From a virus (Duplodnaviria; Heunggongvirae; Uroviricota; Caudoviricetes), in the IMG/VR virus record IMGVR_UViG_2547132421_000005: 34,077 nucleotides of DNA; one strand, 5' to 3'. A program made the translations under genes and the position numbers. The notes under the pieces are model-generated. The model had not been told where the DNA came from and did not search any database. It saw nothing but the letters and a program-made list of their open reading frames with translations. Positions 1 to 34,077 of the stretch are shown piece after piece (position 1 is the first letter of the stretch; each line of letters begins with the position of its first letter).

Positions 1-1284
1 TTACTTCTTCGCCTCTGCAACCACTTTACTACCCACGCCGCGGTTATTGTATTCCCACATGCGGTTGTAGTTAGTGTCATTCAGATTGCGCTGTATTTCG
101 TCGTTATCATCTACGCTGCCGGTATTACCCGCAAACGGACGATTAGAGATCACCGCATCGGCCCACGGTTTAGCCATGTTAAAACCTTCGTTGATGGCGC
201 TATCACGGATCACCACCTGACCGTTGGTATTGGCATCAACATCCAGCGAGCGGCCCAGTTGCGCCACACCATCACCGAAAGCATTGAAACGGCTGTTTAC
301 GGCGAGGAAACCGTAGTAAATGTTGGACAGCGTAGCCGGTGCAAACACATACGCTTCTTGCTGAGTACGTGAGTTCACCACGCGGAATTCGGTGTTATCG
401 AACACCACTGCGCCGCGACCAGAAACGATATCCACATCCCCTTCAATGTAGCTGTTGGTCACCAGCGTACGCGGCTGACGATTCGTTTCCAGACGGTTCT
501 GCACACCGCTGTTGGTGACAAAGAAGGTGTTCTGACGACCGAGAATGTTAACGTTGTTAATCTGTACCTGGTCACCATCAGTACGCAGTGCCACCGCCGG
601 ATGGTTACCTGCATCTACGCTATCGCCCAGCGTGTTTTCGATGGTCAGATTTTGCAGTTGCAGGCCATTGTTTTGTGACCAGAAGACCGCAGAGCAGAGA
701 ACACCGATACTGTCGCTGCGTTTGCTCTGGCAGCTATCGTACATATACCACGCTGGTTTACCTGGCATATATTTGCCGCGCGGGTTGACGTCGTGACGCC
801 AGTCGGCAGGGCTCATGCCACCATCAAGGGAAAGCCCAATCTTCACATCAATCGGTTTTTCACCTGTACCGTACAGAGTAATTCCACCCGGAGCGGCAGG
901 GACATATACCGTTCCCTGATACTCACCAGGCATCACGGCAATATACTGGCGCTTGTTGGTACGCTTGATAATTGCCGCATCTACCGCCGCCTGAATCGTG
1001 GTATGCGTTACACCTTGAGTGCCCGCCGGGCCGACAACAAAGTCAGGTTGCGCAGGCAGGGTAATCGGGGAAGGATTCCACGCTGCAGCACCTGGTGTCA
1101 GGGATGCAAAATAGTGTTGAGCATCGAAATTCTGCGCTTCTTTTGCCGACAGAATCGGGCGAGAAGAGGTACCAGGCGCGGTTTGATCAGAAGGACGTTG
1201 ATCGGGCGGGGTTGAGCTACAGGCGGTCAGCGTCACGCCAAAAGCCAATGCCAGCGCCAGACGGGAAACTGAAAATGTGTTCAC
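1..1284 (-). CDS. ybhC: Host lipoprotein YbhC (pectinesterase-family acyl-CoA thioesterase), complete 427 aa
   Basis: Track ORF 1..1284; N-terminus MNTFSVSRLALALAFGVTLTAC has a lipobox; recognised as E. coli YbhC, the gene next to lambda attB. GTG start. Confidence 0.85.
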   Translation of the reverse strand: MNTFSVSRLALALAFGVTLTACSSTPPDQRPSDQTAPGTSSRPILSAKEAQNFDAQHYFASLTPGAAAWNPSPITLPAQPDFVVGPAGTQGVTHTTIQAAVDAAIIKRTNKRQYIAVMPGEYQGTVYVPAAPGGITLYGTGEKPIDVKIGLSLDGGMSPADWRHDVNPRGKYMPGKPAWYMYDSCQSKRSDSIGVLCSAVFWSQNNGLQLQNLTIENTLGDSVDAGNHPAVALRTDGDQVQINNVNILGRQNTFFVTNSGVQNRLETNRQPRTLVTNSYIEGDVDIVSGRGAVVFDNTEFRVVNSRTQQEAYVFAPATLSNIYYGFLAVNSRFNAFGDGVAQLGRSLDVDANTNGQVVIRDSAINEGFNMAKPWADAVISNRPFAGNTGSVDDNDEIQRNLNDTNYNRMWEYNNRGVGSKVVAEAKK

Positions 1285-1330
1285 AGGTTGCTCCGGGCTA
1301 TGAAATAGAAAAATGAATCCGTTGAAGCCT

Positions 1331-1345
1331 GCTTTTTTATACTAA
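1331..1345. other. Prophage attL: lambda att core flanked by host B arm (left) and phage P' arm (right, to about 1420)
   Basis: Sequence gcttttttatactaa at 1331-1345 followed by gttggcattataaaaaagcattgcttatcaatttgttgcaacgaacaggtcactatcagtcaaaataaaatcatt, which I recognise as the lambda attP P' arm; int lies immediately to the right. Confidence 0.85.
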
Positions 1346-1418
1346 GTTGGCATTATAAAAAAGCATTGCTTATCAATTTGTTGCAACGAACAGGTCACTA
1401 TCAGTCAAAATAAAATCA

Positions 1419-2489
1419 TTATTTGATTTCAATTTTGTCCCACTCCCTGCCTCTGTCATCACGATACTGTGATGCCATGGTGTCCGACTTATGCCCGAGA
1501 AGATGTTGAGCAAACTTATCGCTTATCTGCTTCTCATAGAGTCTTGCAGACAAACTGCGCAACTCGTGAAAGGTAGGCGGATCCCCTTCGAAGGAAAGAC
1601 CTGATGCTTTTCGTGCGCGCATAAAATACCTTGATACTGTGCCGGATGAAAGCGGTTCGCGACGAGTAGATGCAATTATGGTTTCTCCGCCAAGAATCTC
1701 TTTGCATTTATCAAGTGTTTCCTTCATTGATATTCCGAGAGCATCAACATGCAATACTGTTGGGATGGCAATTTTTACGCCTGTTTTGCTTTGCTCGACA
1801 TAAAGATATCCATCTACGATATCAGACCACTTCATTTCGCATAAATCACCAACTCGTTGCCCGGTAACAACAGCCAGTTCCATTGCAAGTCTGAGCCAAC
1901 ATGGTGATGATTCTGCTGCTTGATAAATTTTCAGGTATTCGTCAGCCGTAAGTCTTGATCTCCTTACCTCTGATTTTGCTGCGCGAGTGGCAGCGACAGG
2001 GTTTGTTGTTATATGGCCTTCAGCTATTGCCTCTCGGAATGCATCGCTCAGTGTTGATCTGATTAACTTGGCTGACGCCGCCTTGCCCTCGTCTATGTAT
2101 CCATTGAGCATTGCCGCAATTTCTTTTGTGGTGATGTCTTCAAGTGGAGCATCAGGCAGACCCCTCCTTATTGCTTTAATTTTGCTCATGTAATTTATGA
2201 GTGTCTTCTGCTTGATTCCTCTGCTGGCCAGGATTTTTTCGTAGCGATCAAGCCATGAATGTAACGTAACGGAATTATCACTGTTGATTCTCGCTGTCAG
2301 AGGCTTGTGTTTGTGTCCTGAAAATAACTCAATGTTGGCCTGTATAGCTTCAGTGATTGCGATTCGCCTGTCTCTGCCTAATCCAAACTCTTTACCCGTC
2401 CTTGGGTCCCTGTAGCAGTAATATCCATTGTTTCTTATATAAAGGTTAGGGGGTAAATCCCGGCGCTCATGACTTCGCCTTCTTCCCAT
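1419..2489 (-). CDS. int: Lambda-type integrase (tyrosine recombinase), 356 aa
   Basis: Track ORF; MGRRRSHERRDLPPNLYIRNNGYYCYRDPRTGKEF matches lambda Int; length 356 aa as in lambda; 3' end overlaps the P' arm. Confidence 0.95.
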   Translation of the reverse strand: MGRRRSHERRDLPPNLYIRNNGYYCYRDPRTGKEFGLGRDRRIAITEAIQANIELFSGHKHKPLTARINSDNSVTLHSWLDRYEKILASRGIKQKTLINYMSKIKAIRRGLPDAPLEDITTKEIAAMLNGYIDEGKAASAKLIRSTLSDAFREAIAEGHITTNPVAATRAAKSEVRRSRLTADEYLKIYQAAESSPCWLRLAMELAVVTGQRVGDLCEMKWSDIVDGYLYVEQSKTGVKIAIPTVLHVDALGISMKETLDKCKEILGGETIIASTRREPLSSGTVSRYFMRARKASGLSFEGDPPTFHELRSLSARLYEKQISDKFAQHLLGHKSDTMASQYRDDRGREWDKIEIK

Positions 2490-2685
2490 TTCTGATCCTC
2501 TTCAAAAGGCTACCTGTTACTGGTCGATTTAAGTCAACCTTTACCGCTGATTCGTGGAACAGATACTCTCTTCCATCCTTAACCGGAGGAGGGAATATCC
2601 TGCACTCGCGTACCCATCGACGAACTGTTTCAAGGCTTCTTGGGCGTCGCTGGCGTGCGTTCCACTCCTGAAGTGTCAAGTACAT
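2467..2685 (-). CDS. xis: Excisionase Xis, 72 aa
   Basis: Track ORF; MYLTLQEWNARQRRPRSLETVRRWVRECRIFPPPVKDGREYLF matches lambda Xis; overlaps int start as in lambda. Confidence 0.95.
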   Translation of the reverse strand: MYLTLQEWNARQRRPRSLETVRRWVRECRIFPPPVKDGREYLFHESAVKVDLNRPVTGSLLKRIRNGKKAKS

Positions 2686-2979: not shown

Positions 2980-3411
2980 TCAATATCTATTCCTGTAATA
3001 TCTTTTATCTTTTATCTTTTTCCTTGCAAAGCCTTTTGCTAGTGATTTTGAAACACTCATAAGTGTACTAATTCCCTCATCCTTAAAGTTTGTTTTTATA
3101 GCTTGCCAGACATCCTTTTGACGTAAGTCAGCAATAAAATCATGCCCTCTTGCTGTCAACCTCAGTGGTACTTCGATCCAACTATATCCAACACCTTCCC
3201 CTAACGCTTTGGACAATATATGACCGAACCCAGGTTTTCCATCAACCCTGACTATTAATTCGTAGTCACATAATAATCGCATATGGAAAATAAAATCTTG
3301 GTCATATCTATTAAAGCCATTATCCTCTAGTTCACTAAGCATCGTGTCAGGGCCACGAGTTTTTTCGAATGCGATAAGTAGATCTTTTAGATATTGCTGG
3401 TCTAATTTCAT
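2980..3411 (-). CDS. Hypothetical phage accessory protein, 143 aa (possibly a DUF2513-like family; uncertain)
   Basis: Track ORF; AT-rich coding sequence; no recognisable catalytic motif; lysine/arginine-rich C-terminus. Confidence 0.55.
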   Translation of the reverse strand: MKLDQQYLKDLLIAFEKTRGPDTMLSELEDNGFNRYDQDFIFHMRLLCDYELIVRVDGKPGFGHILSKALGEGVGYSWIEVPLRLTARGHDFIADLRQKDVWQAIKTNFKDEGISTLMSVSKSLAKGFARKKIKDKRYYRNRY

Positions 3412-3778: not shown

Positions 3779-3963
3779 TCTGCTTTTCCTGCATCAGGAG
3801 AAAGACAATCATGGCGGCGCGGATACTTCCGGTATCTTTTTACGCGATATTCCCCTTCAATGGCACATACAAGAAGAGAGCCATCAACAGGAGTGATTGA
3901 GGAATCGACAACCAGCAACGCTTAATTATCTATAGTGTCGTATTTGCTTCATAAAATATGGCG

Positions 3964-4007
3964 AATAACACAAAGCCCGCAGCAGCTCATTGTGCGGGCT
4001 TTTCTTA
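3964..4007. terminator. Hairpin terminator downstream of the secreted-protein gene
   Basis: aagcccgcagcagctcattgtgcgggctt: 7-bp stem gcccgca/tgcgggc; T-rich on the plus side (tttctta) and an A-run on the other side, so possibly bidirectional. Read by eye. Confidence 0.4.
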
Positions 4008-4071
4008 TACCTACTTCCTAGAGATAATTCTATGGAGGCATTAAATCAATACTGTCATTGGTAATATCATA

Positions 4072-4686
4072 TTATCTAAAAGTCTTTCCACTTTTAACAT
4101 CTAGGTATATTCTGTTCGACAACGTCATTCCTCCGCAATATGTGAAATAGATGTTTTCACCCTTATTGCTTGATGCCATCCACCCTCCGATTTCCTTAAA
4201 ATCGCTTTCCGTGCAGACCCCTTCATTTATTAACTTCCTAGCTGCCGAAGAAAACTCTTTTTTGTATATACGGTAGTCATCAGATCCTTTGATTAAAGTA
4301 TCATCTCCGCTCGCATTTTCAGCAGGATCTGATGGCCTTTCACTGCTAAGATCACTAAGTTTAACCCATTCTGAAAACTTGCCATTAACGATTCCATTTT
4401 TTCTTGTGCAGGATTTATTACCTTCTTTAATATATTCGCTTTCCCCTCCAACACATGAGGCTGAATATGGCTCAGTTATACGAACCCATTCACCTTTTTT
4501 TTCTAGAAAATCTACGCCTTCCCTGAAAAATAGTTTCCCAGCCACTCCACATTTACTTGAAGGGCAGGTATGTCTTTCCGTTCGATCAACAACAACCCAT
4601 AGTTTTGATTCATTTTTTGCCATTGCCGATGGTATTTGAGATGAGACAATTAACGTAAGCCCTAAAATTAGTATTGATTTTTTCAT
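4072..4686 (-). CDS. Secreted/periplasmic Cys-rich protein of unknown function, 204 aa
   Basis: Track ORF; N-terminal signal peptide MKKSILILGLTLIVSSQIPSAMA then mature region with about 10 Cys; AT-rich; own terminator downstream. Confidence 0.65.
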   Translation of the reverse strand: MKKSILILGLTLIVSSQIPSAMAKNESKLWVVVDRTERHTCPSSKCGVAGKLFFREGVDFLEKKGEWVRITEPYSASCVGGESEYIKEGNKSCTRKNGIVNGKFSEWVKLSDLSSERPSDPAENASGDDTLIKGSDDYRIYKKEFSSAARKLINEGVCTESDFKEIGGWMASSNKGENIYFTYCGGMTLSNRIYLDVKSGKTFR

Positions 4687-4984
4687 TGTAATTTCCTTTT
4701 ACTTTTTACAAAGCGTTTAATCATGGCTGATTATCTCTAAGTGTAGTAACAGCCTTGTGCGAAACATGTTACCAAATCGCCATTTCAGTGTATCCGCAGT
4801 TAGGCTGCCACTTCAAGGATTCCTAATTACATGGTACGTAAGCGTAAAATCCCGTTGGTTGGCGGGTAATAACTCTGATCAAATCTCCCTTGTCTTTTGC
4901 TCTTACGTATGCAGCTCTTGTGTATTCAACCCAGGCCTCCAGTTCAGCAATACGCTTACTTCCATCCGAGATAACACCTTCTAC

Positions 4985-5236
4985 TCACGCTGCTCGTTGA
5001 GTTTTGATTTTTGCTGTCTCCAGCTCAACACGCAGTTTCCCCACCGTTAGCGCAATATCCTCGTTCTCCTGGTCGCGGCGTTTGATGTATTGCTGGTTTC
5101 TTTCCCGTTCATCCAGCAGTGTCAGCACAATCGATGGTGTTACCAGCTCATGGAAAAGGTCCGCGTCAAATCCCCAGTTGTCAGGCATTGCCTGCTCTGC
5201 CGCTTCACGCAGTGCCTGAGAGTGAATTACGCTCAC
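4985..5236 (-). CDS. Hypothetical early-left protein, 83 aa, C-terminal coiled coil
   Basis: Track ORF; overlaps the start of the next gene by 4 nt. Confidence 0.5.
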   Translation of the reverse strand: MSVIHSQALREAAEQAMPDNWGFDADLFHELVTPSIVLTLLDERERNQQYIKRRDQENEDIALTVGKLRVELETAKIKTQRAA

Positions 5237-6036: not shown

Positions 6037-6197
6037 ACAGCCCCCCGTTTATTATTTATCTCCTCAGCCAGCCGCTGTGCTTTCAGGGGATTTCTGATAA
6101 CAGAAAGGCCGGGAAATACCCAGCCTCGCTTTGTAACGGAGTAGACGAAAGTGATCGCACCTACCCGGATATTATCGTGAGGATGCTTCATCGCCAT
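6009..6197 (-). CDS. Hypothetical small protein (lambda orf60a-position), 62 aa
   Basis: Track ORF; start overlaps the exo stop, as orf60a does in lambda. Confidence 0.5.
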
Positions 6198-6868
6198 TGC
6201 TCCCCAAATACAAAACCAATTTCAGCCAGTGCCTCGTCCATTTTTTCGATGAACTCCGGCACCATCTCGTCAAAACTCGCCATGTACTTTTCATCCCGCT
6301 CAACCACGACATAATGCAGGCCTTCACGCTTCATACGCGGGTCATAGTTGGCAAAGTACCAGGCATCTTTTCGCGTCACCCACATGCTGTACTGCACCTG
6401 GGCCATGTAAGCCGACTTTATGGCCTCGAAACCACCGAGCCGGAACTTCATGAAATCCCGGGAGGTAAACGGGCATTTCAGCTCAAGGCCATTGCCGTCA
6501 CTGCATAAACCATCGGGAGAGCAGGCGGTACGCATACTTTCGTCGCGATAGATGATCGGGGATTCAGTAACATTCACGCCGGAAGTGAATTCAAACAGAG
6601 TTCTGGCGTCGTTCTCGTACTGTTTTCCCCATGCCAGCGCCTTAGCATTAACTTCCGGAGCCACACCGGTGCAAACCTCAGCCAGCAGGGTGTGGAAGTA
6701 GGACATTTTCATGTCAGGCCACTTTTTTCCGGAGCGGGGTTTTGCTATCACATTGTGAACTTCTGAAGCGGTGATGACGCCGAGCCGTAATTTGTGCCAC
6801 GCATCATCCCCCTGTTCGACAGCTCTCACGTCGATTCCGGTACGCTGCAGGATAATGTCCGGTGTCAT
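6188..6868 (-). CDS. exo: Lambda exonuclease (Red alpha), 226 aa
   Basis: Track ORF; [43 protein letters not shown] recognised as lambda Exo; same length. Confidence 0.95.
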
Positions 6869-7650
6869 GCAGCCACCTTCTGCTCAGTGGCTTTCTGTTT
6901 CAGGAATCCAAGAGCTTTCACTGCTTCGGCCTGTGTCAGTTCTGACGATGCGCGAATGTCGCGGCGAAATATCTGGGAACAGAGCGGCAATAAGTCGTCA
7001 TCCCATGTTTTATCCAGGGCAATCAGCAGAGTGTTAATCTCCTGCATGGTTTCATCGTTAACCGGAGTGATGTCGCGTTCCGGCTGACGTTCTGCAGTGT
7101 ATGCGGTATTTTCGACAATGCGCTCGGCTTCATCCTTGTCATAGATACCAGCAAATCCGAAGGCGAGACGGGCACACTGAATCATGGCTTTATGCCGTAA
7201 CATCCGTTTGGGATGCGACTGCCACGGCCCCGTGATTTCTCTGCCTTCGCGGGTTTTGAATGGTTCGCGGCGGCATTCATCCATCCACTCGGTAACGCAG
7301 ATCGGATGATTGCGGTCTTTGCGGTAAATCCGGCATGTGCAGGATTCATTGTCCTGCTCAAAGTCCATGCCATCAAACTGCTGGTTTTCATTGATGATAC
7401 GGGACCAGCCATCAACGCCCACCACCGGAACGATGCCGTTCTGCTTGTCAGGGAAGGCGTAAATTTCTTTCGTCCACGGATTAAGGCCGTACTGGTTGGC
7501 GACGATCAGCAATGCGATGAACTGCGCATCGCTGGCATCACCTTTAAATGCCGTCTGGCGAAGAGTGGTGATCAGTTCCTGTGGGTCGACAGAATCCATG
7601 CCGACGCGTTCAGCCAGCTTCCCAGCCAGCGTTGCGAGTGCTGTACTCAT
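6865..7650 (-). CDS. bet: Red beta single-strand annealing protein, 261 aa
   Basis: Track ORF; [48 protein letters not shown] recognised as lambda Bet. Confidence 0.95.
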
Positions 7651-7655
7651 CCGTT

Positions 7656-8072
7656 TTATACCTCTGAATCAATATCAACCTGGTGGTGAGCAATGGTTTC
7701 AACCATGTACCGGATGTGTTCTGCCATGCGCTCCTGAAACTCAACATCGTCATCAAACGCACGGGTAATGGCTTTTTTGCTGGCCCCGTGGCGTTGTAAA
7801 TGATCGATGCAGAGTGATTCAAACAGGTGCTGGGGCAGACCTTTTTCCATGTCGTCTGCCAGTTCTGCCTCTTTCTCTTCACGGGCGATCTGCTGGTAGT
7901 GACGCGTCCAGCTCTGAGCCTCAAGACGATCCTGAATGTAATAAGCGTTCATGGCTGAACTCCTGAAATAGCTGTGAAAATATCGCCCGCGAAATGCCGG
8001 GCTGATTAGGAAAACAGGAAAGGAGGTTAGTGAATGCTTTTGCTTGATCTCAGTTTCAGTATTAATATCCAT
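7656..8072 (-). CDS. gam: Gam (RecBCD inhibitor), 138 aa
   Basis: Track ORF; [16 protein letters not shown]...[10 protein letters not shown] recognised as lambda Gam. Confidence 0.95.
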
Positions 8073-8170
8073 TTTTTATAAGCGTCGACGGCCTCACGAA
8101 ACATCTTTTCATCGCCAATAAAAGTGGCGATAGTGAATTTAGTCTGGATAGCCATAAGTGTTTGATCCAT
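8027..8170 (-). CDS. kil: Kil (host cell-division inhibitor), 47 aa
   Basis: Internal Met of track ORF 8027..8296: [47 protein letters not shown] matches lambda Kil; overlaps gam and cIII as in lambda. Confidence 0.85.
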
Positions 8171-8303: not shown

Positions 8304-8375
8304 GGTGTGCTCCTTATTTATACATAACGAAAAACGCCTCGAGTGAAGCGTTATTGGTATGCGGTAACGCCGCGC

Positions 8376-8744: not shown

Positions 8745-8764
8745 CTATTCATATCCTCACAGAT

Positions 8765-8792
8765 AAAAAATCGCCCTCACATTGGAGGGCAA
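8765..8792 (-). terminator. Candidate tL2-like intrinsic terminator upstream of ea10 in the pL operon
   Basis: Forward tcgccctcacattggagggc: 6-bp stem gccctc/gagggc, followed on the minus strand by a run of six T. Read by eye. Confidence 0.4.
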
Positions 8793-26695: not shown

Positions 26696-26697
26696 TT

Positions 26698-28104
26698 ATG
26701 GCTGATATATCAACACCCAACCTCGACTATAACGATATGCTGGAGGCGTGGGATATTAACGACGCACTGATGGGCGGTACGCTTGAAATGCGCAGGCAGG
26801 GGGAAAATTATCTCCCAAAATGGCCTAACGAAGATGAAGACGCTTATAAAAAACGCCTGTCTGTGGCTACGCTACTTCCTGTGTATGAAGAAAGCATTAA
26901 GCAAAATATTGGACGCATATTTGCAGAGCCGACAGTATTGAGTGAGGAAACGCCGGAAAAAATCAGGGAATATGCAGAAAATATCGACATGGAGGGGAGC
27001 CGACTGGATGTGTGGGCGCAGCAATTTTTCAGCCTCGCATTTCAGTATGGTGTGGCACATGCGCTGGTGGACTATCCACGAACGGATATGAAGGAGATCC
27101 GGACAAAAGCCGATGAAAATGCGGCTGGTGGTCGCCCATACGTTACGATGCTGAATCCACGCCAGGTTATTGGATGGAAATCGAAAGTTGAAAAAGGGAA
27201 AGTTGTTCTTACTGATTTGCGTATAAAAGAAGTCATCATTGTTGATGGTGATGATTTCGGGCAGAAGAAGGTGGAGCAGATCCGCCATATTATGCCCCGT
27301 TGCGTTGAAATTTATCGACGCAGCGAAGGTACTAATGGCGAATCTGTCTGGACGCTTCACGAGTCATGGAATACCAGCCGTGATGATATTCCTCTGGTAA
27401 CACTGTATACGAAGAAAACAGGGTTTATGCGTGGTACACCGCCATTGCTTAATCTTGGCTTGCTGAATATCAAGCACTGGCAAAGCCAGAGCGAGCAGGA
27501 CAATATTCTTCATGTTGCCCGCGTCCCATTGCTGGTGGCCTACGGGCTGGACAGGAATGAAGAACTGACGGTTGGTGCATCCACCGCTACGATTTTTGAG
27601 GACAGAACAAAAAATGGCCTCGAATATGTTGAACATAGTGGGGCAGCGATAGAATCTGGCGAAACATCACTGGAGAAGCTGGAAAATCAGATGCGTCATG
27701 CCGGCGCTAAACTTCTGCGGGCTGAAAATACATCCACCAAATCTGTTGATCAGACTAATGAAGAGCGGATGCAGGAAAACTCGCCGCTTTATACAATGGC
27801 GAACTCCCTCGAAGATGCCCTCGATAATATTCTCCAGATAATGGCGGAATGGATCGGAGAGAGTTGCGGCGGCAATGTGAATGTGCGCACTGAACTGGAT
27901 GTATCTGCCCAGGTGTTTGACTCATCCTCCGCGCTGGCTGTTCAGTCATTGCGTCAGGGCGGTGATATACGTCAGATTGATGCGGTTCGGGTGTTGCAGG
28001 CGTTGAAATTTATCGATCAGGATTCCCGTCCAGAGGAAGTGATCGATGAATTAAAAAATCAGAGTGTAATGCTGATGGAAATCAATGATGCAAACCGTGA
28101 ATGA
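26698..28104 (+). CDS. Portal protein, 468 aa
   Basis: Track ORF; size and position between terminase large subunit and head morphogenesis gene. Confidence 0.7.
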   Translation: MADISTPNLDYNDMLEAWDINDALMGGTLEMRRQGENYLPKWPNEDEDAYKKRLSVATLLPVYEESIKQNIGRIFAEPTVLSEETPEKIREYAENIDMEGSRLDVWAQQFFSLAFQYGVAHALVDYPRTDMKEIRTKADENAAGGRPYVTMLNPRQVIGWKSKVEKGKVVLTDLRIKEVIIVDGDDFGQKKVEQIRHIMPRCVEIYRRSEGTNGESVWTLHESWNTSRDDIPLVTLYTKKTGFMRGTPPLLNLGLLNIKHWQSQSEQDNILHVARVPLLVAYGLDRNEELTVGASTATIFEDRTKNGLEYVEHSGAAIESGETSLEKLENQMRHAGAKLLRAENTSTKSVDQTNEERMQENSPLYTMANSLEDALDNILQIMAEWIGESCGGNVNVRTELDVSAQVFDSSSALAVQSLRQGGDIRQIDAVRVLQALKFIDQDSRPEEVIDELKNQSVMLMEINDANRE

Positions 28105-29200
28105 ACGGCTGCGTGATGAATCAATTGCTCATGCAGTCTGGATATCTCGCTATAGCACTGGTGTGGCTGCCAGAATGGTGAAAACACTGAATGACAGCGA
28201 TGCGGAGCTTACAGCTCGCCTGCTGGTGGCACTGGACAGCCTCGATCCAGGTAGTTTCACCGTTACGCGCCTGGAGTCACTTCTGGCGAGTGTCAGAGAG
28301 GTTAACCGCGCTGCTATTAACAGCATGTTTACCAGGCTCTCCGGAGAGCTGAACGAGCTGGCAGTTTATGAGGCTGGTTATCAGTTAAGTCTGTTTGATT
28401 CTCTGCTACCTGATTTTGTTGCTGATGTTCACCCTCTGGTTGGTATCTCACCTGATGCACTTTATGCCGCGGCAATGGCGCGACCATTCCAGGGACGACT
28501 GCTCAGTGAGTGGGCCTCAGATCTTGAGGCGGATCGGCTCAGACGCATAACAAATACGGTGCGTCAGGGTTTTTTGTTGGGGGATACCAATGAGCAGATC
28601 GCAAGAAAAATTCGGGGACATGTCAGTAAGGGATTTCAGGATGGTGCATTGCAGATGAGCCGGGCTAATGCGGCCAGCATTGCAAAAACAGCGGTTGGAC
28701 ATCTTGCTGCTACTGCCCGTGAGAGTTTTGCCAGCGCGAATAATGATTTGATTAAGGGTAAGCAATGGTTATCAACGCTTGATAATCGTACTACGCCACA
28801 ATGTCGAATCAGGGATCGCCTCAAATATACGCTGAATAATAAACCTGTAGGTCACAGCGTGCCTTATTTGCAGGGGCCGGGAAAAATTCATTTCTGCTGC
28901 CGCTCAACGGAAACGTTCATTCTGAAATCAGCGAAGGAACTGGGTATTGATGTTCGTGATATTTCCCCGGCTGAGCGGGCCAGCATGGATGGCGTGGTGG
29001 CCGGAGATACAACCTACAGGGAATGGTTTTTGCGTCAGCCTTACACCAGACAAAAACAGATTGTGGGGGAAACCCGGGCAAAGCTGATTCGGGATGGCGG
29101 TATGTCGCCAGATGAATTTTACACCGATAAAGGCGAATGGCTGACGCTGAAGCAACTCCGTGAGCGTGATGCACAGGTATTCAGAAAAGCAGGGATTTAA
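28085..29200 (+). CDS. Head morphogenesis / minor head protein (SPP1 gp7 / Mu F-like), 371 aa
   Basis: Track ORF; position after portal. Confidence 0.65.
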   Translation: MMQTVNERLRDESIAHAVWISRYSTGVAARMVKTLNDSDAELTARLLVALDSLDPGSFTVTRLESLLASVREVNRAAINSMFTRLSGELNELAVYEAGYQLSLFDSLLPDFVADVHPLVGISPDALYAAAMARPFQGRLLSEWASDLEADRLRRITNTVRQGFLLGDTNEQIARKIRGHVSKGFQDGALQMSRANAASIAKTAVGHLAATARESFASANNDLIKGKQWLSTLDNRTTPQCRIRDRLKYTLNNKPVGHSVPYLQGPGKIHFCCRSTETFILKSAKELGIDVRDISPAERASMDGVVAGDTTYREWFLRQPYTRQKQIVGETRAKLIRDGGMSPDEFYTDKGEWLTLKQLRERDAQVFRKAGI

Positions 29201-29219
29201 ATAAATCATTTATTACAAC

Positions 29220-29246
29220 AGGCTACCTTCGGGTGGCCTTTTTTAT
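29220..29246 (+). terminator. Intrinsic terminator after the head morphogenesis gene
   Basis: ggctacc-ttcg-ggtggcc hairpin (one wobble pair) followed by ttttttatt. Confidence 0.5.
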
Positions 29247-29304
29247 TGCTGCGATCCGGATGGTGAGCAGCGTAACTGTCGGAAGACTTAAACCAGGTAC
29301 TAAT

Positions 29305-30069
29305 ATGAAACTGAAAACGGTCGAGATTAACGGAAAACAATACGCAGAAATTGATACTGCTGGCCTGCCAGTTTATGTGCACGACGATGGTAAAGAAATC
29401 GGCTTCGATGCACCGCTGGCGATAAAAAAAATTACAGAGCTTAATGGCGAGGCAAAAAATCATCGCCTGGCTAAAGAAGCTGCAGAGGAAAAACTGGCTA
29501 AGTTTGCCGCTATCGAAGACCCGAAGAAGGCGATCGAGGCACTGGAAATGCTGTCAAAAATCGACCAGAAAAAGCTGATCGATGCGGGACAGGTTGACCA
29601 GGTTAAGGCAGAAATTACGAAAAATTTTCAGCAGCAATTAGATGAAGAAAAGCAACGCTCTCAGATGCTGGAGACGCAGCTTTACGATTCTATGATTGGC
29701 GGTAGTTTTGCGGGGTCAAAATATATTGCCGATAAAATTGCGATCCCGGCAGATTTATTACAAGCCCGCTTCGGGCAGGCATTCAAAGTGGAAGAAGGGA
29801 AGATCGTTGCTTATGACGCTTCCGGCAACAAAATTTATTCCCGCGCGAAGCCTGGCGAACTGGCGCAGTTTGATGAGGCGCTGGAGTTCCTCGTCGAAAA
29901 TTACCCTCAGAAAGACTACATCCTGAAAGCCAGTGGCAACAATGGCGGCGGCTCCCGTCCGACACAGCATGATATTGGTCAGAAAACGATGAAACGCTCT
30001 GCTTTTGATGCACTGGATGTTGCAGGTAAGCAAAACGCATTGAAAGACGGTATCACAATCGTTGATTAA
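29305..30069 (+). CDS. Scaffolding protein (candidate), 254 aa
   Basis: Internal ATG of track ORF 29233..30069 (MKLKTVEINGKQYAEIDTAG...); acidic, helix-rich; lies directly upstream of the capsid gene. Confidence 0.55.
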   Translation: MKLKTVEINGKQYAEIDTAGLPVYVHDDGKEIGFDAPLAIKKITELNGEAKNHRLAKEAAEEKLAKFAAIEDPKKAIEALEMLSKIDQKKLIDAGQVDQVKAEITKNFQQQLDEEKQRSQMLETQLYDSMIGGSFAGSKYIADKIAIPADLLQARFGQAFKVEEGKIVAYDASGNKIYSRAKPGELAQFDEALEFLVENYPQKDYILKASGNNGGGSRPTQHDIGQKTMKRSAFDALDVAGKQNALKDGITIVD

Positions 30070-30167
30070 CACATTTGTCAGCTTCCGGATGGGAGCTGGT
30101 GTCAGGGCTGGATAGCTCATTACTCCATCTATTCACAATTACGCAAATTTTTAAGGAATATTTAATT

Positions 30168-31307
30168 ATGGCTGGAAATACCCTGACCGGGTTGATCCCG
30201 ACTATTTATACCGCCCTGGATGTTGTATCCCGTGAGCAGGTAGGTTTTATCCCTGCGGTAGCAAAAAACGCAAAAGCTGACGCCGCAGCAAAAGATCAGA
30301 CGGTAACCGCGCCAGTTGCGCCTGAGGCGAAAACCGAAGATATCGTACCAGGGCCGTCAGCTCCGAATACCGGTGATCAAAATATTGGCACTGTTGATGT
30401 AAAAATTACTAAATCCAAAATGGCACCGGTTAAATGGAATGGTGAAGAACAACTGGCTCTTGGCCCTTCAGGGACTTACAACACCATTCTGGCTGATCAG
30501 TTCAAGCAGGCTTTTCGCGCCCTTGCAAACGAGGTTGAGGCTGATCTTGGTGCGTTGTATTTCGGTGCTTCCCGCGCCGTGGGAACCGCAGGGACAACGC
30601 CGTTTGGTGTTAAAGATGATCTTTCTGATGCTGCTCTGGCTCGTCAGGTTCTGGAGGATAACGGCGCACCGACAACCGATCTGCAGATGGTGCTTGGCTC
30701 CACTGCCATTGCTAATTTGCGCGGAAAACAGTCTGTATTGTTTAAAGTGAATGAATCCGGCACTGAACAGCTACTGCGTGAGGGCGTGTTGGGGCGTCTG
30801 GAGGGATTCAATATTCACAGTTCGGCAGGTGTGAAACGAGCGCCAAAGGTTGCTGCAACTGGTTATCTCGTGAATGGAGAGAAAAAAGAAGGCGATGTTC
30901 TTATTTCCATTGATACTGGTTCGGGGAGTATTTCTGCAGGTCAGATTGTTACGTTCGCTGGTGATCCGAATCAGTATGTTGTGGCAGCAGCGACCAGCAA
31001 TCTGATTACTCTTGCAGCGCCCGGACTGCGTCAGGATCTGGCCGATGATACTGCCATCACAGTTGTTGGGGCCTTTACTGCAAATATGGCGTTTGATCGC
31101 AACGCGTTTCTGCTGGCATCCCGTACTCCGGCAATGCCGGAAGGTGGCGATAATGCTGATGATGTAATGAATGTTACGGACCCGATTTCAGGGATTACGT
31201 TCCAGATTGCACTGTATCGTCAGTATCGCCAGGTGCGCTATGAAGTTGGACTGGCATGGGGTGTTTCATCAGTGAAGCCGGCACATGGTTGTCTGATTCT
31301 TGGTTAA
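30168..31307 (+). CDS. Major capsid protein (candidate), 379 aa
   Basis: Internal ATG of track ORF 30075..31307 (MAGNTLTGLIPTIYTALDVVSREQVGFIPAVAKN...); AGGA RBS; followed by a strong terminator. Confidence 0.65.
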   Translation: MAGNTLTGLIPTIYTALDVVSREQVGFIPAVAKNAKADAAAKDQTVTAPVAPEAKTEDIVPGPSAPNTGDQNIGTVDVKITKSKMAPVKWNGEEQLALGPSGTYNTILADQFKQAFRALANEVEADLGALYFGASRAVGTAGTTPFGVKDDLSDAALARQVLEDNGAPTTDLQMVLGSTAIANLRGKQSVLFKVNESGTEQLLREGVLGRLEGFNIHSSAGVKRAPKVAATGYLVNGEKKEGDVLISIDTGSGSISAGQIVTFAGDPNQYVVAAATSNLITLAAPGLRQDLADDTAITVVGAFTANMAFDRNAFLLASRTPAMPEGGDNADDVMNVTDPISGITFQIALYRQYRQVRYEVGLAWGVSSVKPAHGCLILG

Positions 31308-31316
31308 ACATTCAAA

Positions 31317-31337
31317 CGGGGCTTCGGCCCCATTTTT
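31317..31337 (+). terminator. Intrinsic terminator after the capsid gene
   Basis: ggggc-ttcg-gcccc hairpin followed by attttta. Confidence 0.55.
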
Positions 31338-31349
31338 AATGGGGGGCAT

Positions 31350-31526
31350 ATGGCCGGATTAACTAAAGAGCAAAGAGCACAGCGTGAAGCCGCACAAAAA
31401 ACGCAAATTGAGTTAGTGGTTATGGTGACCGATTATCAGATGTTTCCCGGCGCACCAACTATCGCTAATGTTCATCCTGATGAAGTTGACAACTGGAAGG
31501 CTATGGGCTGGAAAACTCAGGAGTAA
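31350..31526 (+). CDS. Small hypothetical head-region protein, 58 aa (not in track)
   Basis: My own translation: MAGLTKEQRAQREAAQKTQIELVVMVTDYQMFPGAPTIANVHPDEVDNWKAMGWKTQE; ends 3 nt before the next gene. Hand-read. Confidence 0.4.
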   Translation: MAGLTKEQRAQREAAQKTQIELVVMVTDYQMFPGAPTIANVHPDEVDNWKAMGWKTQE

Positions 31527-31529
31527 CAC

Positions 31530-31925
31530 ATGATCACTTACGTGACCTGTGATGACGTTGATAATGCGTTTGGGAACGCCTGGACGAGTGAGAACGCTAA
31601 AAATAAAGCTGTTTTAATGGCTAATGCCTGGCTTAATGGTTTCAACCTGAAAATTAACCCATCCCGTATTCCGGAAGAGGTAAAACTTGCGGGAGCGTAT
31701 GCAGCCAGAATTGCCTCATTCGGTAAGTTGTTTCAGCAGAAAAATGATTCTGGCGTTGTTATCAGTAAAGCCGTGTCGGCTGACGGGGTCAGTGTATCGA
31801 AATCATTTTCTGAGTTGCCAGCAAACAGCACTGCATTGCTTGAACCCGATTTACAGCTTGCGATAGCACTGCTGAAACCGTACGGACTTAGTCGCTCACA
31901 AGTCAGGGTTGTGAGGGGGGGATAA
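31530..31925 (+). CDS. Head-tail connector / DNA-packaging (gp6-like) protein, 131 aa
   Basis: Track ORF; position after capsid; translationally coupled to the next gene. Confidence 0.45.
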   Translation: MITYVTCDDVDNAFGNAWTSENAKNKAVLMANAWLNGFNLKINPSRIPEEVKLAGAYAARIASFGKLFQQKNDSGVVISKAVSADGVSVSKSFSELPANSTALLEPDLQLAIALLKPYGLSRSQVRVVRGG

Positions 31926-32308
31926 TGGGGCTTCGTGAAGAGATTCAGTCAGAGGTTGCCGCTGCTTTTGATGAGGATTTAGCGGACGCCGTGAGTGATA
32001 TTTCTGGTTCTTACGTTACGCACCGGCACTGGGATCCTGTGACGGAAACTGGCGGCGAATCCACCGCAATCTATACCGGGCGAGGCGTGTTGACACGTTA
32101 TAAGCTGGGCAGAATTGATGGGATTAATATTTTGCATGGTGACCTTAAATTAACCGCTCTGGTATGCGAGGTTACGGATAAACCAGCTGTCGACCATATT
32201 ATTGAGATTTATGATCCTGTATCAAGGCAGTTACAACGATACGAGGTAATTACAGCAAGTGTAGATCCTTCCGCATCAGTTTACTCTATCCAGTTAAGGA
32301 GAGCGTAA
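31925..32308 (+). CDS. Head-tail adaptor / head closure protein (candidate), 127 aa
   Basis: Track ORF; position. Confidence 0.45.
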   Translation: MGLREEIQSEVAAAFDEDLADAVSDISGSYVTHRHWDPVTETGGESTAIYTGRGVLTRYKLGRIDGINILHGDLKLTALVCEVTDKPAVDHIIEIYDPVSRQLQRYEVITASVDPSASVYSIQLRRA

Positions 32309-32659
32309 ATGGCAAAGGCATGGGATATAGAACCGTCAATATTTGCCGGGATGATTGAGGAAGATGTAGGGCTGAAGATTCGCTACATCGCTATTCAGAT
32401 TCTTACTGCTATTGATATTGCTGCTCCGGTTGATACCGGACGTTTCAGAAATAACAACCTGGTGTCGTTACAGCATCCCGATTTTGGTATATCTGATAAC
32501 GTGGATCCGAACGGTACGATTGCTGTTCAGCGTGGGATCGGGGTTATTTCGAAAGCTGCAAATTACGGGGTTATTTATATCCAAAATAACCTTCCTTATG
32601 CAGAGGCTCTTGAAAACGGTCATTCACAACAAGCGCCAACTGGCGTGTATGCCAACGCT
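32309..32659 (+). pseudogene. Tail-component gene (HK97 gp10-like family, tentative) truncated at its 3' end by IS1
   Basis: Track ORF 32309..32686 runs into IS1; its last residues (GDAANLLI) are encoded by the IS1 terminal repeat, so the native C-terminus is missing. Confidence 0.5.
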
Positions 32660-32714
32660 GGTGATGCTGCCAACTTACTGATTTAGTGTATGATGGTGTT
32701 TTTGAGGTGCTCCA

Positions 32715-32990
32715 GTGGCTTCTGTTTCTATCAGCTGTCCCTCCTGTTCAGCTACTGACGGGGTGGTGCGTAACGGCAAAAGCACCGCCGGACATCAGCG
32801 CTATCTCTGCTCTCACTGCCGTAAAACATGGCAACTGCAGTTCACTTACACCGCTTCTCAACCCGGTACGCACCAGAAAATCATTGATATGGCCATGAAT
32901 GGCGTTGGATGCCGGGCAACAGCCCGCATTATGGGCGTTGGCCTCAACACGATTTTACGTCACTTAAAAAACTCAGGCCGCAGTCGGTAA
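32715..32990 (+). CDS. insA: IS1 InsA, 91 aa
   Basis: Track ORF; [43 protein letters not shown]. Confidence 0.9.
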
Positions 32991-33412
32991 CCTCGCGCAT
33001 ACAGCCGGGCAGTGACGTCATCGTCTGCGCGGAAATGGACGAACAGTGGGGCTATGTCGGGGCTAAATCGCGCCAGCGCTGGCTGTTTTACGCGTATGAC
33101 AGGCTCCGGAAGACGGTTGTTGCGCACGTATTCGGTGAACGCACTATGGCGACGCTGGGGCGTCTTCTGAGCCTGCTGTCGGCCTTTGACGTGGTGATAT
33201 GGATGACGGATGGCTGGCCGCTGTATGAATCCCGCCTGAAGGGAAAGCTGCACGTAATCAGCAAGCGATATACGCAGCGAATTGAGCGGCATAACCTGAA
33301 TCTGAGGCAGCACCTGGCACGGCTGGGACGGAAGTCGCTGTCGTTCTCAAAATCGGTGGAGCTGCATGACAAAGTCATCGGGCATTATCTGAACATAAAA
33401 CACTATCAATAA
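32909..33412 (+). CDS. insB: IS1 InsB reading frame (normally expressed as an InsAB' frameshift fusion)
   Basis: Track ORF; overlaps the 3' end of insA in the -1 frame, as in IS1. Confidence 0.85.
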
Positions 33413-33427
33413 GTTGGAGTCATTACC

Positions 33428-34077
33428 CCCGCGTTATACCACGTCCCATTAATGCAATACTGAATTGGCCTTGCCTGAGTTGTATCAATTAATTCATCAC
33501 GGTTTCCGTTAACTGAACCCGTAACGACATAACCTGACCTGTCAGACCAGCCGGGGCCTTTCCATGTCTGAACAGATGACAGACCGCCAAGGCGAATACC
33601 TGTAATAAACCTTGAGTTACATTCTGCCTGCGTATATGCACCAACATCCCCCGCAGAGGGTTTGCGTGTTGTGGTGTAAAACTCTGACCAGTTAGCTTCA
33701 AAGCCATAACCATCACGCGCTGAACGATAAAAAATACCGCCGTTCCTGTAATTCACGCGGAACTGTACAGCAGGGCAACTCCCCGCATTCATATTGAAGT
33801 GGAGGATTAATGTCGATGCACCACTGATATCTGCATCATAAACACCGCTATTCCAGTTCCAGCCAACAGCTTTATCATTTGCGACCCTGCGTCCTGTTTG
33901 CCCTAAAGCAAATGCAGGCTGCTGGTTTTTCGTGTTGTAGTCTCGTCGCCAGCCAGGAGCGTAAGCATCACCATGATTAATATAAGTGAATTGAGCGTTA
34001 GTAATTCCGCCACCGCTGGACGTGCTCGGCGTAGTAACGCGTATGGTCATTGCGCCGCGAGTGCCAATAACTTCCAC
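33428..34077 (-). pseudogene. Tail-fibre-like gene fragment on the minus strand, 3' end truncated by IS1; 5' end beyond the window
   Basis: Track ORF 33406..34077 (no real start, runs to the window edge); Gly/Ser/Thr/Asn-rich beta-type sequence typical of tail-fibre distal domains; last 6 codons and stop come from the IS1 end. Confidence 0.45.

Follow-up and report, generated by a model that had tools for sequence, protein, structure and literature searches.

The lambdoid prophage at attB-lambda

The window (the whole stretch analysed, 34,077 nucleotides) contains the host gene ybhC and about 33 kb of a lambdoid prophage of approximately 35.5 kb, which sits at attB-lambda with ybhC on one side and ybhB on the other. 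The right end of the prophage lies beyond the window. attR is found about 2.7 kb past the window end and is preceded there by a pin remnant, a tfa remnant and a diguanylate cyclase gene; in strain EC529, a second copy of the att core adjoins ybhB about 2.7 kb past the equivalent of the window end. The first-pass annotation, which spoke of the prophage as a whole, therefore had some 33 kb of it in view but not the last 2.7 kb or so up to attR. The element is an ordinary defective Escherichia coli prophage at the lambda attachment site. Its make-up is mosaic: int/xis, Red, O and P are of lambda type, the immunity region and nin genes of P22 type, and a cargo block after Q is followed by a Rac-type late region with trkG. 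The features up to the cargo block are as follows.

1-1284, minus strand: ybhC, host gene, left chromosomal flank of attB-lambda; open reading frame (ORF) intact (annotation of the near-identical EC529 and PSJ-14)
1331-1345, plus: att core GCTTTTTTATACTAA, int-proximal prophage end (exact match, 0 expected by chance)
1419-2685, minus: int (1419-2489) and xis (2467-2685), both intact, no internal stops, Pfam matches near full length
2980-3411, minus: DUF2513 gene with an extra 7-bp (ATCTTTT) repeat unit at about 2999-3019, private to the window
3811-5188, minus: old scars, a 'DNA repair protein' fragment (about 3811-3921) and an ea22 remnant (about 4937-5188) (PGAP pseudogene flags)
4072-4686, minus: intact 204-aa gene, function unassigned, between the old scars (phrog_8310 full length)
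6188-7952, minus: Red genes, intact, exo (6188-6868), bet (6865-7650) and gam (7656-7952) (Pfam YqaJ, RecT, Gam 98/98)
8027-8316, minus: kil, cIII and cIII RNA thermometer (annotation; Rfam Lambda_thermo, 88.5 bits at 8258-8316)
9005-9586, plus: sieB superinfection-exclusion gene, intact (Pfam SieB)
10070-10122, minus: pL-like promoter with P22-type operators (sequence)
10188-10838, minus: P22 c2-type repressor, 216 aa, intact (HTH_3 and Peptidase_S24)
10839-13924, plus: OR/pR, cro, cII, O, P, ren, ninB, all intact (annotation, ORF check)
13921-14452, plus: Dam-like N6-adenine methyltransferase pseudogene, tandem AACG duplication at 13968-13971
14449-14969, plus: ninE and P22-type ninX (Pfam Phage_P22_NinX 1-114/114)
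about 15090-15179, plus: ybcO/DUF1364 3' remnant, 90 nt, old mosaic joint (flagged in all relatives)
15176-15538, plus: rusA pseudogene, W88 amber, TAG at 15437-15439
15761-16138, plus: Q antiterminator, intact (annotation, ORF check)
16294-19053, mixed strands: cargo block between Q and the lysis genes, all intact (Pfam near full length)
16294-16818, minus: lipocalin/Blc-like gene, intact
17011-17970, plus: YbgA-like gene (DUF523 and DUF1722), intact
18322-19053, plus: AraC-type HTH gene, intact

The genes that had been called intact on first reading (int, xis, exo, bet, gam, the repressor, sieB and the lipocalin- and TrkG-like genes) are all uninterrupted ORFs with near full-length Pfam matches, and so are the YbgA-like and AraC-type genes. 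The matches of int are to Phage_integrase and the lambda Arm-DNA-binding domain, that of xis is to an Excisionase-like family. The extra repeat unit of the DUF2513 gene, which rewrites the last 7-8 codons (translations compared), was not found in any of the 13 relatives covering the site, EC529 and PSJ-14 included. Both old scars are common to every relative, the lambda-late prophage of 025542-1 among them.

Lesions of the lysis, tail and nin regions

The lysis cassette and the late region are composed as follows.

19241-19296, plus: essD (holin) 5' stump, 56 nt (alignment to ET474, 025542-1)
19297-20554, plus: IS3, complete, 1258 bp, no target duplication
20555-20684, plus: Rz/Rz1 3' remnant, 129 nt (20555-20683) (annotation, alignment)
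20821-22278, plus: trkG, intact (Pfam TrkH, E 8.7e-144)
22416-23204, plus: ParB_N-domain gene, 262 aa, intact (Pfam)
23197-24060, plus: TET-associated-glycosyltransferase-like gene, C-terminal 23 aa unlike the Rac/EP91B form
24064-32308, plus: Rac/P22-capsid-type packaging and head module, intact (annotation, ORFs, PHROG)
32309-32659, plus: Neck1/tail-completion gene, cut after codon 117 by IS1 (alignment, PHROG)
32660-33427, plus: IS1 (IS1A type), 768 bp, at the joint of an approximately 16-kb tail-gene deletion
33428-34077, minus: alternative tail-fibre C-terminal cassette, Pin-type invertible segment, cut by the window end (PHROG tail fibre, Pfam gp37_C)

IS3 stands in place of 987 bp of essD-rrrD-Rz that are present in ET474 (L005 32280-33266), and its flanks (TAG and AAT) lack the 3-bp target duplication; the junctions and the missing DNA confirm the holin/endolysin deletion proposed earlier. 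In HeN100 and ET358, IS3 is simply inserted in rrrD and flanked by a GTC duplication. B27 shares the left junction of these two strains and has a right junction identical to that of the window, and in the window, EC529 and PSJ-14 the left junction is shifted into essD; of 5426 complete genomes, just EC529 and PSJ-14 have this arrangement. Because these states form a nested series, IS3 would first have inserted into the endolysin gene rrrD, after which the DNA to its right would have been lost up to Rz and then the DNA to its left up to essD.

In the comparison of orthologous prophages, which had been recommended for ordering the lesions, the distribution of lesions among sister strains is reticulate and at odds with a simple tree. 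The rusA amber codon groups the window with 74-2, whose lysis cassette is intact, and the IS3-Rz junction groups it with B27, whose own single-nucleotide polymorphisms place B27 with HeN100 and MB30. Since these groupings conflict, they call for a minimum of one recombination between lineages or one recurrent event.

At the other end of the late region, the 13 consecutive packaging, head and connector ORFs (24064-32308) are all uninterrupted; the order is small ORF, terS, terL, portal, minor head, scaffold, capsid, small ORF, adaptor Ad1 and head closure Hc1, and the module shares 98.2% identity with Rac of strain 1500 and 99.9% with MB30. Beyond it the Neck1 gene is cut and no tail genes are left in the prophage. 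The IS1 flanks, GCCAACGCT and CCCGCGTTA, lack the 9-bp target duplication, and the left junction recurs only in EC529 and PSJ-14 among the 5426 complete genomes. An IS1-associated deletion probably took away the tail genes, about 16 kb as estimated from Rac of strain 1500. The inversion that had been attributed to the same event is not a product of IS1: the tail-fibre cassette has the opposite orientation in HeN100, where it lies between two gix-like sites (a single one is left in EC529), and represents one state of a Pin/Gin-type invertible segment.

The Dam-like frameshift and the rusA amber codon reported in the nin region are real. The 4-bp AACG duplication in the Dam-like gene leads to a stop at codon 24; removal of the 4 bp restores a 175-aa protein with a full-length Pfam Dam match (E 4.5e-65). 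The un-inserted allele occurs in 1536 records of E. coli complete genomes; among the matches listed, EC529 and PSJ-14 alone carry the inserted one over the full query length, two further records in the band of at least 99% identity lying outside these. In rusA, TGG has become TAG at codon 88 (W88*, changed base 15438); about 3380 records have TGG at this codon versus only 3 with TAG, namely EC529, PSJ-14 and 74-2. Dam and rusA lesions have also arisen independently in 81EVA and ET474. Both genes are accessory, and their lesions do not disable the phage.

The divergent gene reported at the ninF position was rejected as a lesion; it is an intact, full-length P22-type ninX (14628-14969), and every close relative examined has it annotated under an identical protein accession. 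The true scar beside it is the ybcO/DUF1364 remnant, an old one. In ET358 rusA is preceded by a full-length ybcO, and the lambda-late relatives 025542-1 and fS58a, both with intact lysis cassettes, have the remnant too.

Of the 'at least five inactivating lesions' of the first-pass annotation, four are thus real and only those of the lysis and tail regions disable the phage. As predicted from its gene content, the prophage is without the capacity to lyse the cell or to build tails.

Recent neutral decay versus selection

The window is 99.8-100% identical to its relatives, and its own branch amounts to 11 derived substitutions in 30.7 kb, a density of about 3.6 per 10 kb since the split from relatives with those genes intact. 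With only 11 derived substitutions, neutrality by itself predicts intact ORFs. About 2.9 substitutions are expected across the 7.96 kb covered by the 'retained' genes and 2 were observed, both synonymous, and the chance that six independent lesion events would all miss this set is 0.17. The remaining genes are probably intact mainly through shortness of time, and not demonstrably through host selection.

We consider it likely, with good confidence, that the element is a hybrid lambdoid prophage at an early stage of largely neutral, insertion-sequence-driven decay. Two lesions, the loss of lysis genes with IS3 and the IS1-associated loss of tail genes, have disabled the phage; a 4-bp duplication and a nonsense mutation have made pseudogenes of the accessory Dam-like and rusA genes; and the intact state of the cargo, Red, immunity, replication and head genes would be that of a lineage too young for more decay. 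Observed directly are the lesions with their junctions, how rare they are among genomes, the nesting of the IS3 states and the condition of the sisters. Neutrality serves here as an unrejected null model, suggested by substitution counts; like the mechanism of the deletions adjacent to insertion sequences and the order of lesions, it is something we infer. Decay in the sister lineages is independent and strikes different places: their tail regions have suffered seven or more separate deletions, with IS1, IS5 or IS3-family elements at the boundaries; at the joint of the 81EVA deletion no insertion sequence is annotated.

Selection against harmful lytic functions, in which early-promoter changes and the loss of holin, endolysin and spanin genes avert death on SOS induction and the remainder hitchhikes, is a possible but distinctly less probable account. 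Insertion sequences have struck the lysis cassette independently, IS3 in rrrD (HeN100, B27 and the window lineage) and IS5 in essD (MB30), yet the cassette is intact in most sisters (ET474, MB46, YSP8-1, EP91B, 74-2, 81EVA and WP8-S18). The 146 bp of early control DNA have five private mutated sites, against about 0.32 expected, in four lineages: 10102 in the window, 10103 and 10864 in EC529, 10104 in YSP8-1 and 10910 in 81EVA. The window's C>T at 10102 is position -39 of the pL-like promoter (-35 TTGACC at 10098-10093, -10 TAAATT at 10075-10070), 10864 lies inside the pR -35 hexamer and 10910 inside the cro Shine-Dalgarno sequence. Such independent point mutations, clustered at pL, pR and the cro ribosome-binding site, hint at selection on early-gene expression and are at odds with purely neutral decay. 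However, an unbiased sliding-window permutation did not single out the control region (P=0.18), the promoter variants are seen as sequence changes that do not give the direction of their effect, and kil, N, O and P are intact in every relative that still has the early region.

Somewhat more doubtful is the view of a domesticated prophage under purifying selection, in which the host keeps trkG, the lipocalin, YbgA-like and AraC-type regulator genes, sieB, the repressor and Red while the lytic functions decay. Prophage domestication is established (PMC6379469, citing Bobay et al. 2014), and every gene named is intact. In B27 and 74-2, the relatives with the most erosion, the entire early region is gone but lipocalin-YbgA-HTH-trkG-DGC is still present, and on the window branch early and cargo genes have 0 nonsynonymous and 3 synonymous substitutions versus 4 and 2 in late genes; both observations weakly favour such retention, although the substitution contrast is not significant (P=0.12). 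trkG occurs in 1551 of 5426 genomes, with at least 99% identity in 1525 records, and each of the 15 hybrid-type relatives examined has it intact; such conservation could reflect selection or recent spread. Against this view, intactness is what neutrality predicts at such divergence, the head module, of no value to the host, is just as intact, and B27 and 74-2 dispense with exo, bet and gam. Cargo genes in same-locus sisters are hit about as often as other genes: sieB is hit in MB30, the lipocalin gene in MB46 and the YbgA-like gene in YSP8-1; the AraC-type gene is lost in WP8-S18 and frameshifted in 025542-1; and the diguanylate cyclase gene is truncated in MB46 and not annotated in WP8-S18 and 81EVA. 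In PSJ-14, int is hit. The selective retention of host-beneficial functions that was first proposed is supported by none of the tests run.

Helper-dependent mobility, in which the element excises, replicates and packages heads by itself and obtains tails and lysis from a co-resident Rac-type or lambdoid phage, is very improbable. It would agree with the intact int, xis, att core, O, P, Q, terS, terL, portal, scaffold, capsid, adaptor and head-closure genes, but recency explains the intact head genes, the Neck1/tail-completion gene is truncated and sister lineages shed head genes freely. Moreover, trkG very seldom occurs in more than one copy (1558 places in 1551 genomes; a single place in each of the sister hybrid hosts YSP8-1 and WP8-S18 among the matches listed, which do not include EC529 and PSJ-14), giving no sign of a second, trkG-bearing Rac-type tail donor. 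Sequencing or assembly artefacts, earlier named as a possible refutation, found no supporting evidence and are effectively refuted, as the junctions, the Dam duplication and the rusA amber codon are identical in the independently sequenced complete genomes of EC529 (Viet Nam) and PSJ-14 (Ecuador), strains of different continents, the amber codon also occurring in 74-2 (China).

Relation to known prophages

The early, neutrally decaying hybrid that we favour resembles lambda and lambdoid phages at attB-lambda (gal-bio) in its site, 15-bp core, Int arm-binding domain and Xis, and follows lambda gene order through exo-bet-gam-kil-cIII-N, O-P-ren, the nin region and Q. Unlike lambda, it has P22 c2/cro-type immunity, with operators resembling those of P22, and its late region is of Rac type. 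The prophages of 025542-1 and fS58a share its left arm but have a lambda-type late region, the switch point lying in the lysis cassette.

The segment 20555-32659 (Rz', trkG, ParB-like gene, terS to Neck1) is collinear with and 98.2% identical to Rac (ttcA locus) of strain 1500, and this module is present in 685 genomes. Rac differs in its locus and integrase, the window has lambda Red instead of recET, and the early regions are unrelated; Rac of strain 1500 also has its own IS3 at another site in rrrD. In that Rac a sensor diguanylate cyclase gene adjoins tfaR, and a gene of this kind lies outside the window between the tail-fibre-assembly remnant and attR of EC529, PSJ-14 and other relatives. 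Prophage remnants at attB-lambda are known to carry dgcX (Richter et al. 2014, PMC4287979), and the gene, whose location agrees with the published positions of dgcX, may be identical with it.

A grounded prophage is one with defective att sites or recombinase (Ramisetty & Sudhakari 2019, PMC6379469). That term, applied to the element on first reading, does not fit in this strict sense, as int, xis and both att cores are intact. The cryptic prophages DLP12, e14, Rac and Qin (PMC6379469) are likewise defective, with insertion sequences, deletions and retained cargo, and are hotspots of rearrangement and recombination. The window differs from them in its intact int, xis and att core, and its decay is far more recent than that of the K-12 cryptic prophages.

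Location and hybrid architecture

Megablast comparison with 5426 complete E. coli genomes placed the window at the lambda attachment locus. Integration at attB of lambda, between ybhC and ybhB and with a core at both ends, is visible in the sibling genome EC529; the right prophage end lies beyond the window, and the second core, adjoining ybhB, was read in EC529.

1-1284: host gene ybhC, the left flank; the remainder of the window is prophage
1331-1345: lambda att core GCTTTTTTATACTAA, 15 bp, adjoining ybhC
8258-8316, minus strand: lambda cIII RNA thermometer (Rfam RF01804, 88.5 bits), conserved upstream of and inside cIII
22416-24060: intact ParB_N-domain gene overlapping the following TET-associated glycosyltransferase match (Pfam, E 4.9e-36), just 5' of terS
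Left arm, in order: int, xis, accessory genes, exo-bet-gam, kil, cIII, sieB, N, repressor, cro, cII, O, P, ren, ninB, dam, ninE, ninX, rusA, ylcG, Q
Cargo block between Q and the lysis genes: lipocalin/Blc-like, YbgA-like and AraC-type regulator genes
Right arm: Rz remnant, trkG, ParB-like gene, glycosyltransferase-like gene, terS to Neck1

The closest records are the E. coli strains PSJ-14, of human origin from Ecuador, and EC529, from chicken meat in Viet Nam, which are 99.9-100% identical to the window and both carry extra IS insertions relative to it. In EC529, the prophage continues for ~2.7 kb past the window end; this part comprises remnants of pin (195 bp) and of a tail-fibre-assembly gene (99 nt), a gene for a sensor diguanylate cyclase, and the second att core. 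The first-pass annotation spoke of the prophage as a whole; prophage it is, but judged by the EC529 right end the window covers ~33 kb of a ~35.5-kb element. The diguanylate cyclase gene (1332 bp, 7603-8934 of the EC529 locus L001) is situated between the tail-fibre-assembly remnant and attR. It is likewise found next to tfaR in Rac of strain 1500; the MB46 copy is truncated, and neither WP8-S18 nor 81EVA has the gene annotated at the right end. Its place agrees with the published positions of dgcX (PMC4287979), a likeness of position alone.

The prophage follows the canonical lambdoid order (int, Red, N, repressor, cro, cII, O, P, nin, Q, lysis, head, tail), the lysis and tail modules being present as remnants only. 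Its left arm resembles that of lambda in gene order and content, and encodes a lambda-type tyrosine integrase and excisionase (Pfam Phage_integrase, 3.7e-40; Arm-DNA-bind_1, 7.2e-33; Exc, 3.9e-41). The immunity region is of the P22 type (immC), with a c2-like repressor of 216 aa carrying Pfam HTH and S24 domains and a Cro of 61 aa. Direct reading of this region revealed operator-like repeats of the ATTTAAGnnnnCTT type; operators of the form ATTTAAGnnnnCTTAAAT belong to the P22 type. The cIII thermometer was the sole match in an Rfam scan of the window.

The right arm is collinear with, and 98.2% identical to, that of Rac of strain 1500, which occupies its normal locus, and this Rac-type module was found in 685 genomes. 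In 025542-1 and fS58a, a left arm 99.8% identical to that of the window gives way, within the lysis cassette, to a head/tail region of lambda type. The same lambda-early/Rac-late hybrid is present at the same site in ET474, MB30, MB46, YSP8-1, EP91B, 81EVA, WP8-S18, HeN100, B27 and 74-2, and by this distribution it is no recent accident of the window's strain. A recent IS3-mediated chimera with a resident Rac was rejected: ET474, MB46, YSP8-1, 81EVA, WP8-S18 and others have an intact lysis cassette and no IS3, the ybhC and ybhB flanks of the prophage are normal, and trkG occurs almost always as one copy, also in the two sister hosts among the matches listed.

The ParB-like ORF is complete in the window (262 aa), although some RefSeq records call it a truncated ynaK fragment, and the glycosyltransferase-like gene lacks 23 aa that the Rac form has at its C terminus. 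These two genes may constitute a DNA-modification pair of Rac-type late regions. PADLOC analysis of ten accessory/cargo proteins detected no known defence systems, the sole match being to the ParB_N part of a methyltransferase model.

Lesions and their order

The lesions reported previously in the lysis, tail and nin regions were compared with the corresponding sites of the relatives.

2999-3019: ATCTTTT, three tandem copies in the window and two in every relative
13968-13971: AACG tandem duplication in the Dam-like gene
15438: G>A in rusA
19297-20554: complete IS3, 1258 bp, with TGATC...GATCA ends and orfA/orfB
32660-33427: IS1, 768 bp, a length that fits this element
33395-33420 and 36448-36473 of the HeN100 locus L013: gix/pix-like 26-bp crossover sites
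9389-9414 of the EC529 locus L001: gix/pix-like 26-bp crossover site

The deletion of holin/endolysin genes associated with IS3 was confirmed: IS3 stands in place of 987 bp present in ET474, and of essD only 56 nt remain, of Rz/Rz1 129 nt. This copy, 99.6-99.8% identical to other IS3 copies, has no 3-bp target-site duplication (flanks TAG versus AAT), so secondary deletions flank it. In HeN100 and ET358, a simple IS3 insertion is found at nt 111 of rrrD, with GTC duplicated; B27 combines the left junction of HeN100/ET358 with the right junction of the window, and in the window, EC529 and PSJ-14 the left junction is shifted back into essD. By this series, the single lysis lesion is the product of an IS3 insertion and then two flanking deletions. 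The latter could have arisen either by IS-adjacent deletion or by recombination with further IS3 copies; the variation of IS3 copies at positions 200 and 1132, together with a rare C at 1214 common to them, is compatible with the recombination route. A microhomology deletion at the right end was rejected, as the full IS3 terminus is kept and recombination at the shared GGAT would remove the terminal CA. The IS3 of fS58a lies 3' of an intact lysis cassette, and this genome was rejected as a junction intermediate.

An IS1-associated tail deletion/inversion had also been proposed. The deletion stands: IS1 cuts the Neck1/tail-completion gene after codon 117 and adjoins the 3' end of the minus-strand tail-fibre cassette and, measured against Rac of strain 1500, ~16 kb from the tail terminator to the tail-fibre genes would have been lost. 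No 9-bp target duplication was found at the window IS1 (GCCAACGCT versus CCCGCGTTA), whereas the simple IS1 insertions of relatives do have such duplications. The inversion is not the work of IS1 but the orientation state of a Pin-type segment. HeN100 carries the same cassette DNA in the opposite orientation, fused to the tail-fibre gene, within a 3-kb segment between two inverted gix-like sites and adjoining the pin remnant; it has both crossover sites and all tail-fibre cassettes. A Pin/Gin-type invertible segment would need two inverted 26-bp crossover sites around opposed tail-fibre C-terminal and tfa cassettes, beside a serine recombinase gene. The window lineage, in which one site (beyond the window), one cassette and 195 bp of the recombinase gene are left, falls short of this, and the segment is frozen in it. 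Since the recombinase persists in all relatives as such a 195-bp remnant only, any inversion must have been catalysed earlier or in trans. The window IS1 itself differs at 3 positions from the same-site IS1 of EC529 and PSJ-14, compared with only ~10 differing positions in the surrounding 33 kb, which suggests gene conversion among IS1 copies.

Both point lesions were verified. The AACG duplication shifts the frame of the Dam-like gene at codon 17; once it is taken out, the gene again encodes a protein of 175 aa, whose match to Pfam Dam is full-length. The un-inserted allele occurs in 1536 records; the inserted one, over the whole query, is found only in EC529 and PSJ-14 among the matches listed, with two further records in the band of at least 99% identity. 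The rusA change converts Trp88 to an amber codon, common to EC529, PSJ-14 and 74-2 only, among ~3380 genomes with rusA. By contrast with these, the supposedly divergent gene in the ninF position is no lesion, since it encodes an intact, full-length P22-type NinX (Pfam), annotated under a single protein accession throughout the close relatives. True scars are a 90-nt ybcO/DUF1364 stump beside NinX, an ea22 stump and a 'DNA repair protein' fragment; all three are old and recur in 025542-1 and fS58a, lambda-late relatives that have intact lysis cassettes. The ATCTTTT expansion is private to the window and alters the final 7-8 codons of the DUF2513 gene, so that only the C-terminal tail of the protein changes. 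The lesions are not artefacts, since genomes sequenced independently share both the junctions and the point lesions.

Comparison with the sister strains allowed the lesions to be ordered only in part. In the clade formed by the window, EC529 and PSJ-14, the rusA amber, common to 74-2, would have come first. The IS3 state, the IS1A deletion, the 4-nt Dam insertion and three SNPs, found in these three prophages only and in no discernible order among themselves, would have followed. Strain-private events would be the last: the 7-bp repeat of the window, the IS1 in the 204-aa gene of EC529 and PSJ-14, and the ISKox3 and ISEc22 insertions of PSJ-14 only. However, the IS3-Rz junction shared with B27 contradicts this order; B27 groups with HeN100 and MB30 by SNPs and other IS junctions, and the lysis cassette of 74-2 is intact. 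The rusA amber and the IS3-Rz junction thus support conflicting groupings, and a strictly tree-like order fails. The same rrrD::IS3 allele is also present in ET358, on a DLP12-like mosaic. Such reticulate sharing (IS3-Rz with B27, rusA amber with 74-2, rrrD::IS3 with ET358) points either to homologous recombination between sister prophages or to recurrent events.

The tail region is partly lost in all 15 hybrid-type relatives. No fewer than seven separate deletions account for this, and the IS elements at their ends differ; the joint in 81EVA is without an annotated IS. Some deletions form nested series from one fixed IS junction, as with the terL IS1 of YSP8-1, ET474 and MB46, which has three right ends, and likewise with IS1B and IS5 of HeN100/B27.

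Intact genes and proposed selective retention

All the genes listed as intact in the first-pass annotation (int, xis, exo, bet, gam, the repressor, sieB, the Blc-like lipocalin, trkG and the moron genes) are so. The explanation offered, that the host selects for retention of beneficial prophage genes, goes beyond the evidence. It can draw on B27 and 74-2, which keep the lipocalin-YbgA-HTH-trkG-cyclase genes despite loss of the early region, and on trkG, at least 99% identical in 1525 records and split by IS1 in one row only among the matches listed. Substitutions also lean this way, though not significantly, 0N/3S in early and cargo genes versus 4N/2S in late genes, in a purifying-selection test confined to 11 derived substitutions (P = 0.12).

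However, the element is young. The window branch, polarised against the other relatives, carries these 11 substitutions in 30.7 kb; in the 7.96 kb of 'retained' genes, ~2.9 would be expected and 2 were seen, both synonymous. Six independent lesion events would all miss the 'retained' set with P = 0.17. Moreover, 13 consecutive packaging, head and connector ORFs (24064-32308), for which a host benefit is inconceivable, are as intact as the 'retained' genes.

The sister prophages also weaken the case for selection, as their cargo genes are disrupted about as readily as other genes. IS5 is inserted in sieB and cIII of MB30; in MB46 the lipocalin gene is interrupted by an IS3-family element, and an IS1 deletion cuts into the diguanylate cyclase gene; the YbgA-like gene of YSP8-1 carries IS1; the AraC-type gene is replaced by IS1 in WP8-S18 and frameshifted in 025542-1; and in PSJ-14 ISKox3 lies in int and ISEc22 in the DUF2528 gene. 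Tallied by hand from annotation tables, small-scale disruptions amount to approximately 0.8 per kb of cargo and 0.7 per kb of other early genes. In B27 and 74-2, the whole early region is gone, exo/bet/gam included, which makes the latter dispensable. In an element few substitutions old, broken lytic genes beside intact cargo are no evidence of selection.

The term 'grounded', also applied to this prophage, was coined for excision blocked via mutation of an att site or of the recombinase/excisionase (Ramisetty & Sudhakari 2019, PMC6379469). None of int, xis and the att cores is damaged here, so the term is unearned; the accurate label is 'defective for lysis and tails'.

Early-promoter changes and general reading

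Three changes affect adjacent bases: 10102 C>T in the window, 10103 G>T in EC529 and 10104 T>C in YSP8-1. These positions correspond to -39 to -41 of the pL-like promoter, between the -35 hexamer and OL2. PSJ-14 has the ancestral CGT, and the window and EC529 changes are therefore independent. In addition, the pR -35 hexamer of EC529 is changed from TTGACT to TTGGCT (10864 A>G), and the cro Shine-Dalgarno of 81EVA from GGAG to GGGG (10910 A>G). Four sister lineages, separated from one another by no more than a handful of SNPs, thus each carry private early-control mutations within 146 bp of pL/OL and pR/OR/cro-RBS DNA, which hold 5 of the 68 variable sites versus 0.32 expected (a-priori test, P = 2e-5). 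An unbiased window permutation for mutation clustering was not significant (P = 0.18), because one relative has a recombination-like SNP tract elsewhere. Given a strong a-priori test and a null unbiased one, the cluster counts as no more than a lead. Metagenome and viral contigs, scanned by pattern for further pL-region alleles, yielded none.

Selection on the expression of early lytic genes may account for the early-control mutations, in a prophage that would be inducible yet unable to finish its cycle. That selection is still acting on the sister copies, so as to retune or silence their early lytic transcription, seems to us rather unlikely. If true, stepwise prophage 'disarmament' would be traceable almost in real time across natural isolates, and this possible parallel evolution at early promoters is the sole part of the case that might reward experimental effort.

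In our judgement, the window very probably holds an ordinary hybrid lambdoid prophage, recently and neutrally decaying. What had been observed in it is largely correct in its parts, and the interpretation exceeds the evidence. NCBI annotation of both near-identical genomes had already marked the pseudogenes as such. The finding by itself changes little, and serves as a cautionary, well-resolved case in which ~15 sister prophages at one locus reveal decay that is fast, IS-driven, lineage-specific and reshuffled by recombination. As a type, IS-eroded defective lambdoid prophages are textbook material.
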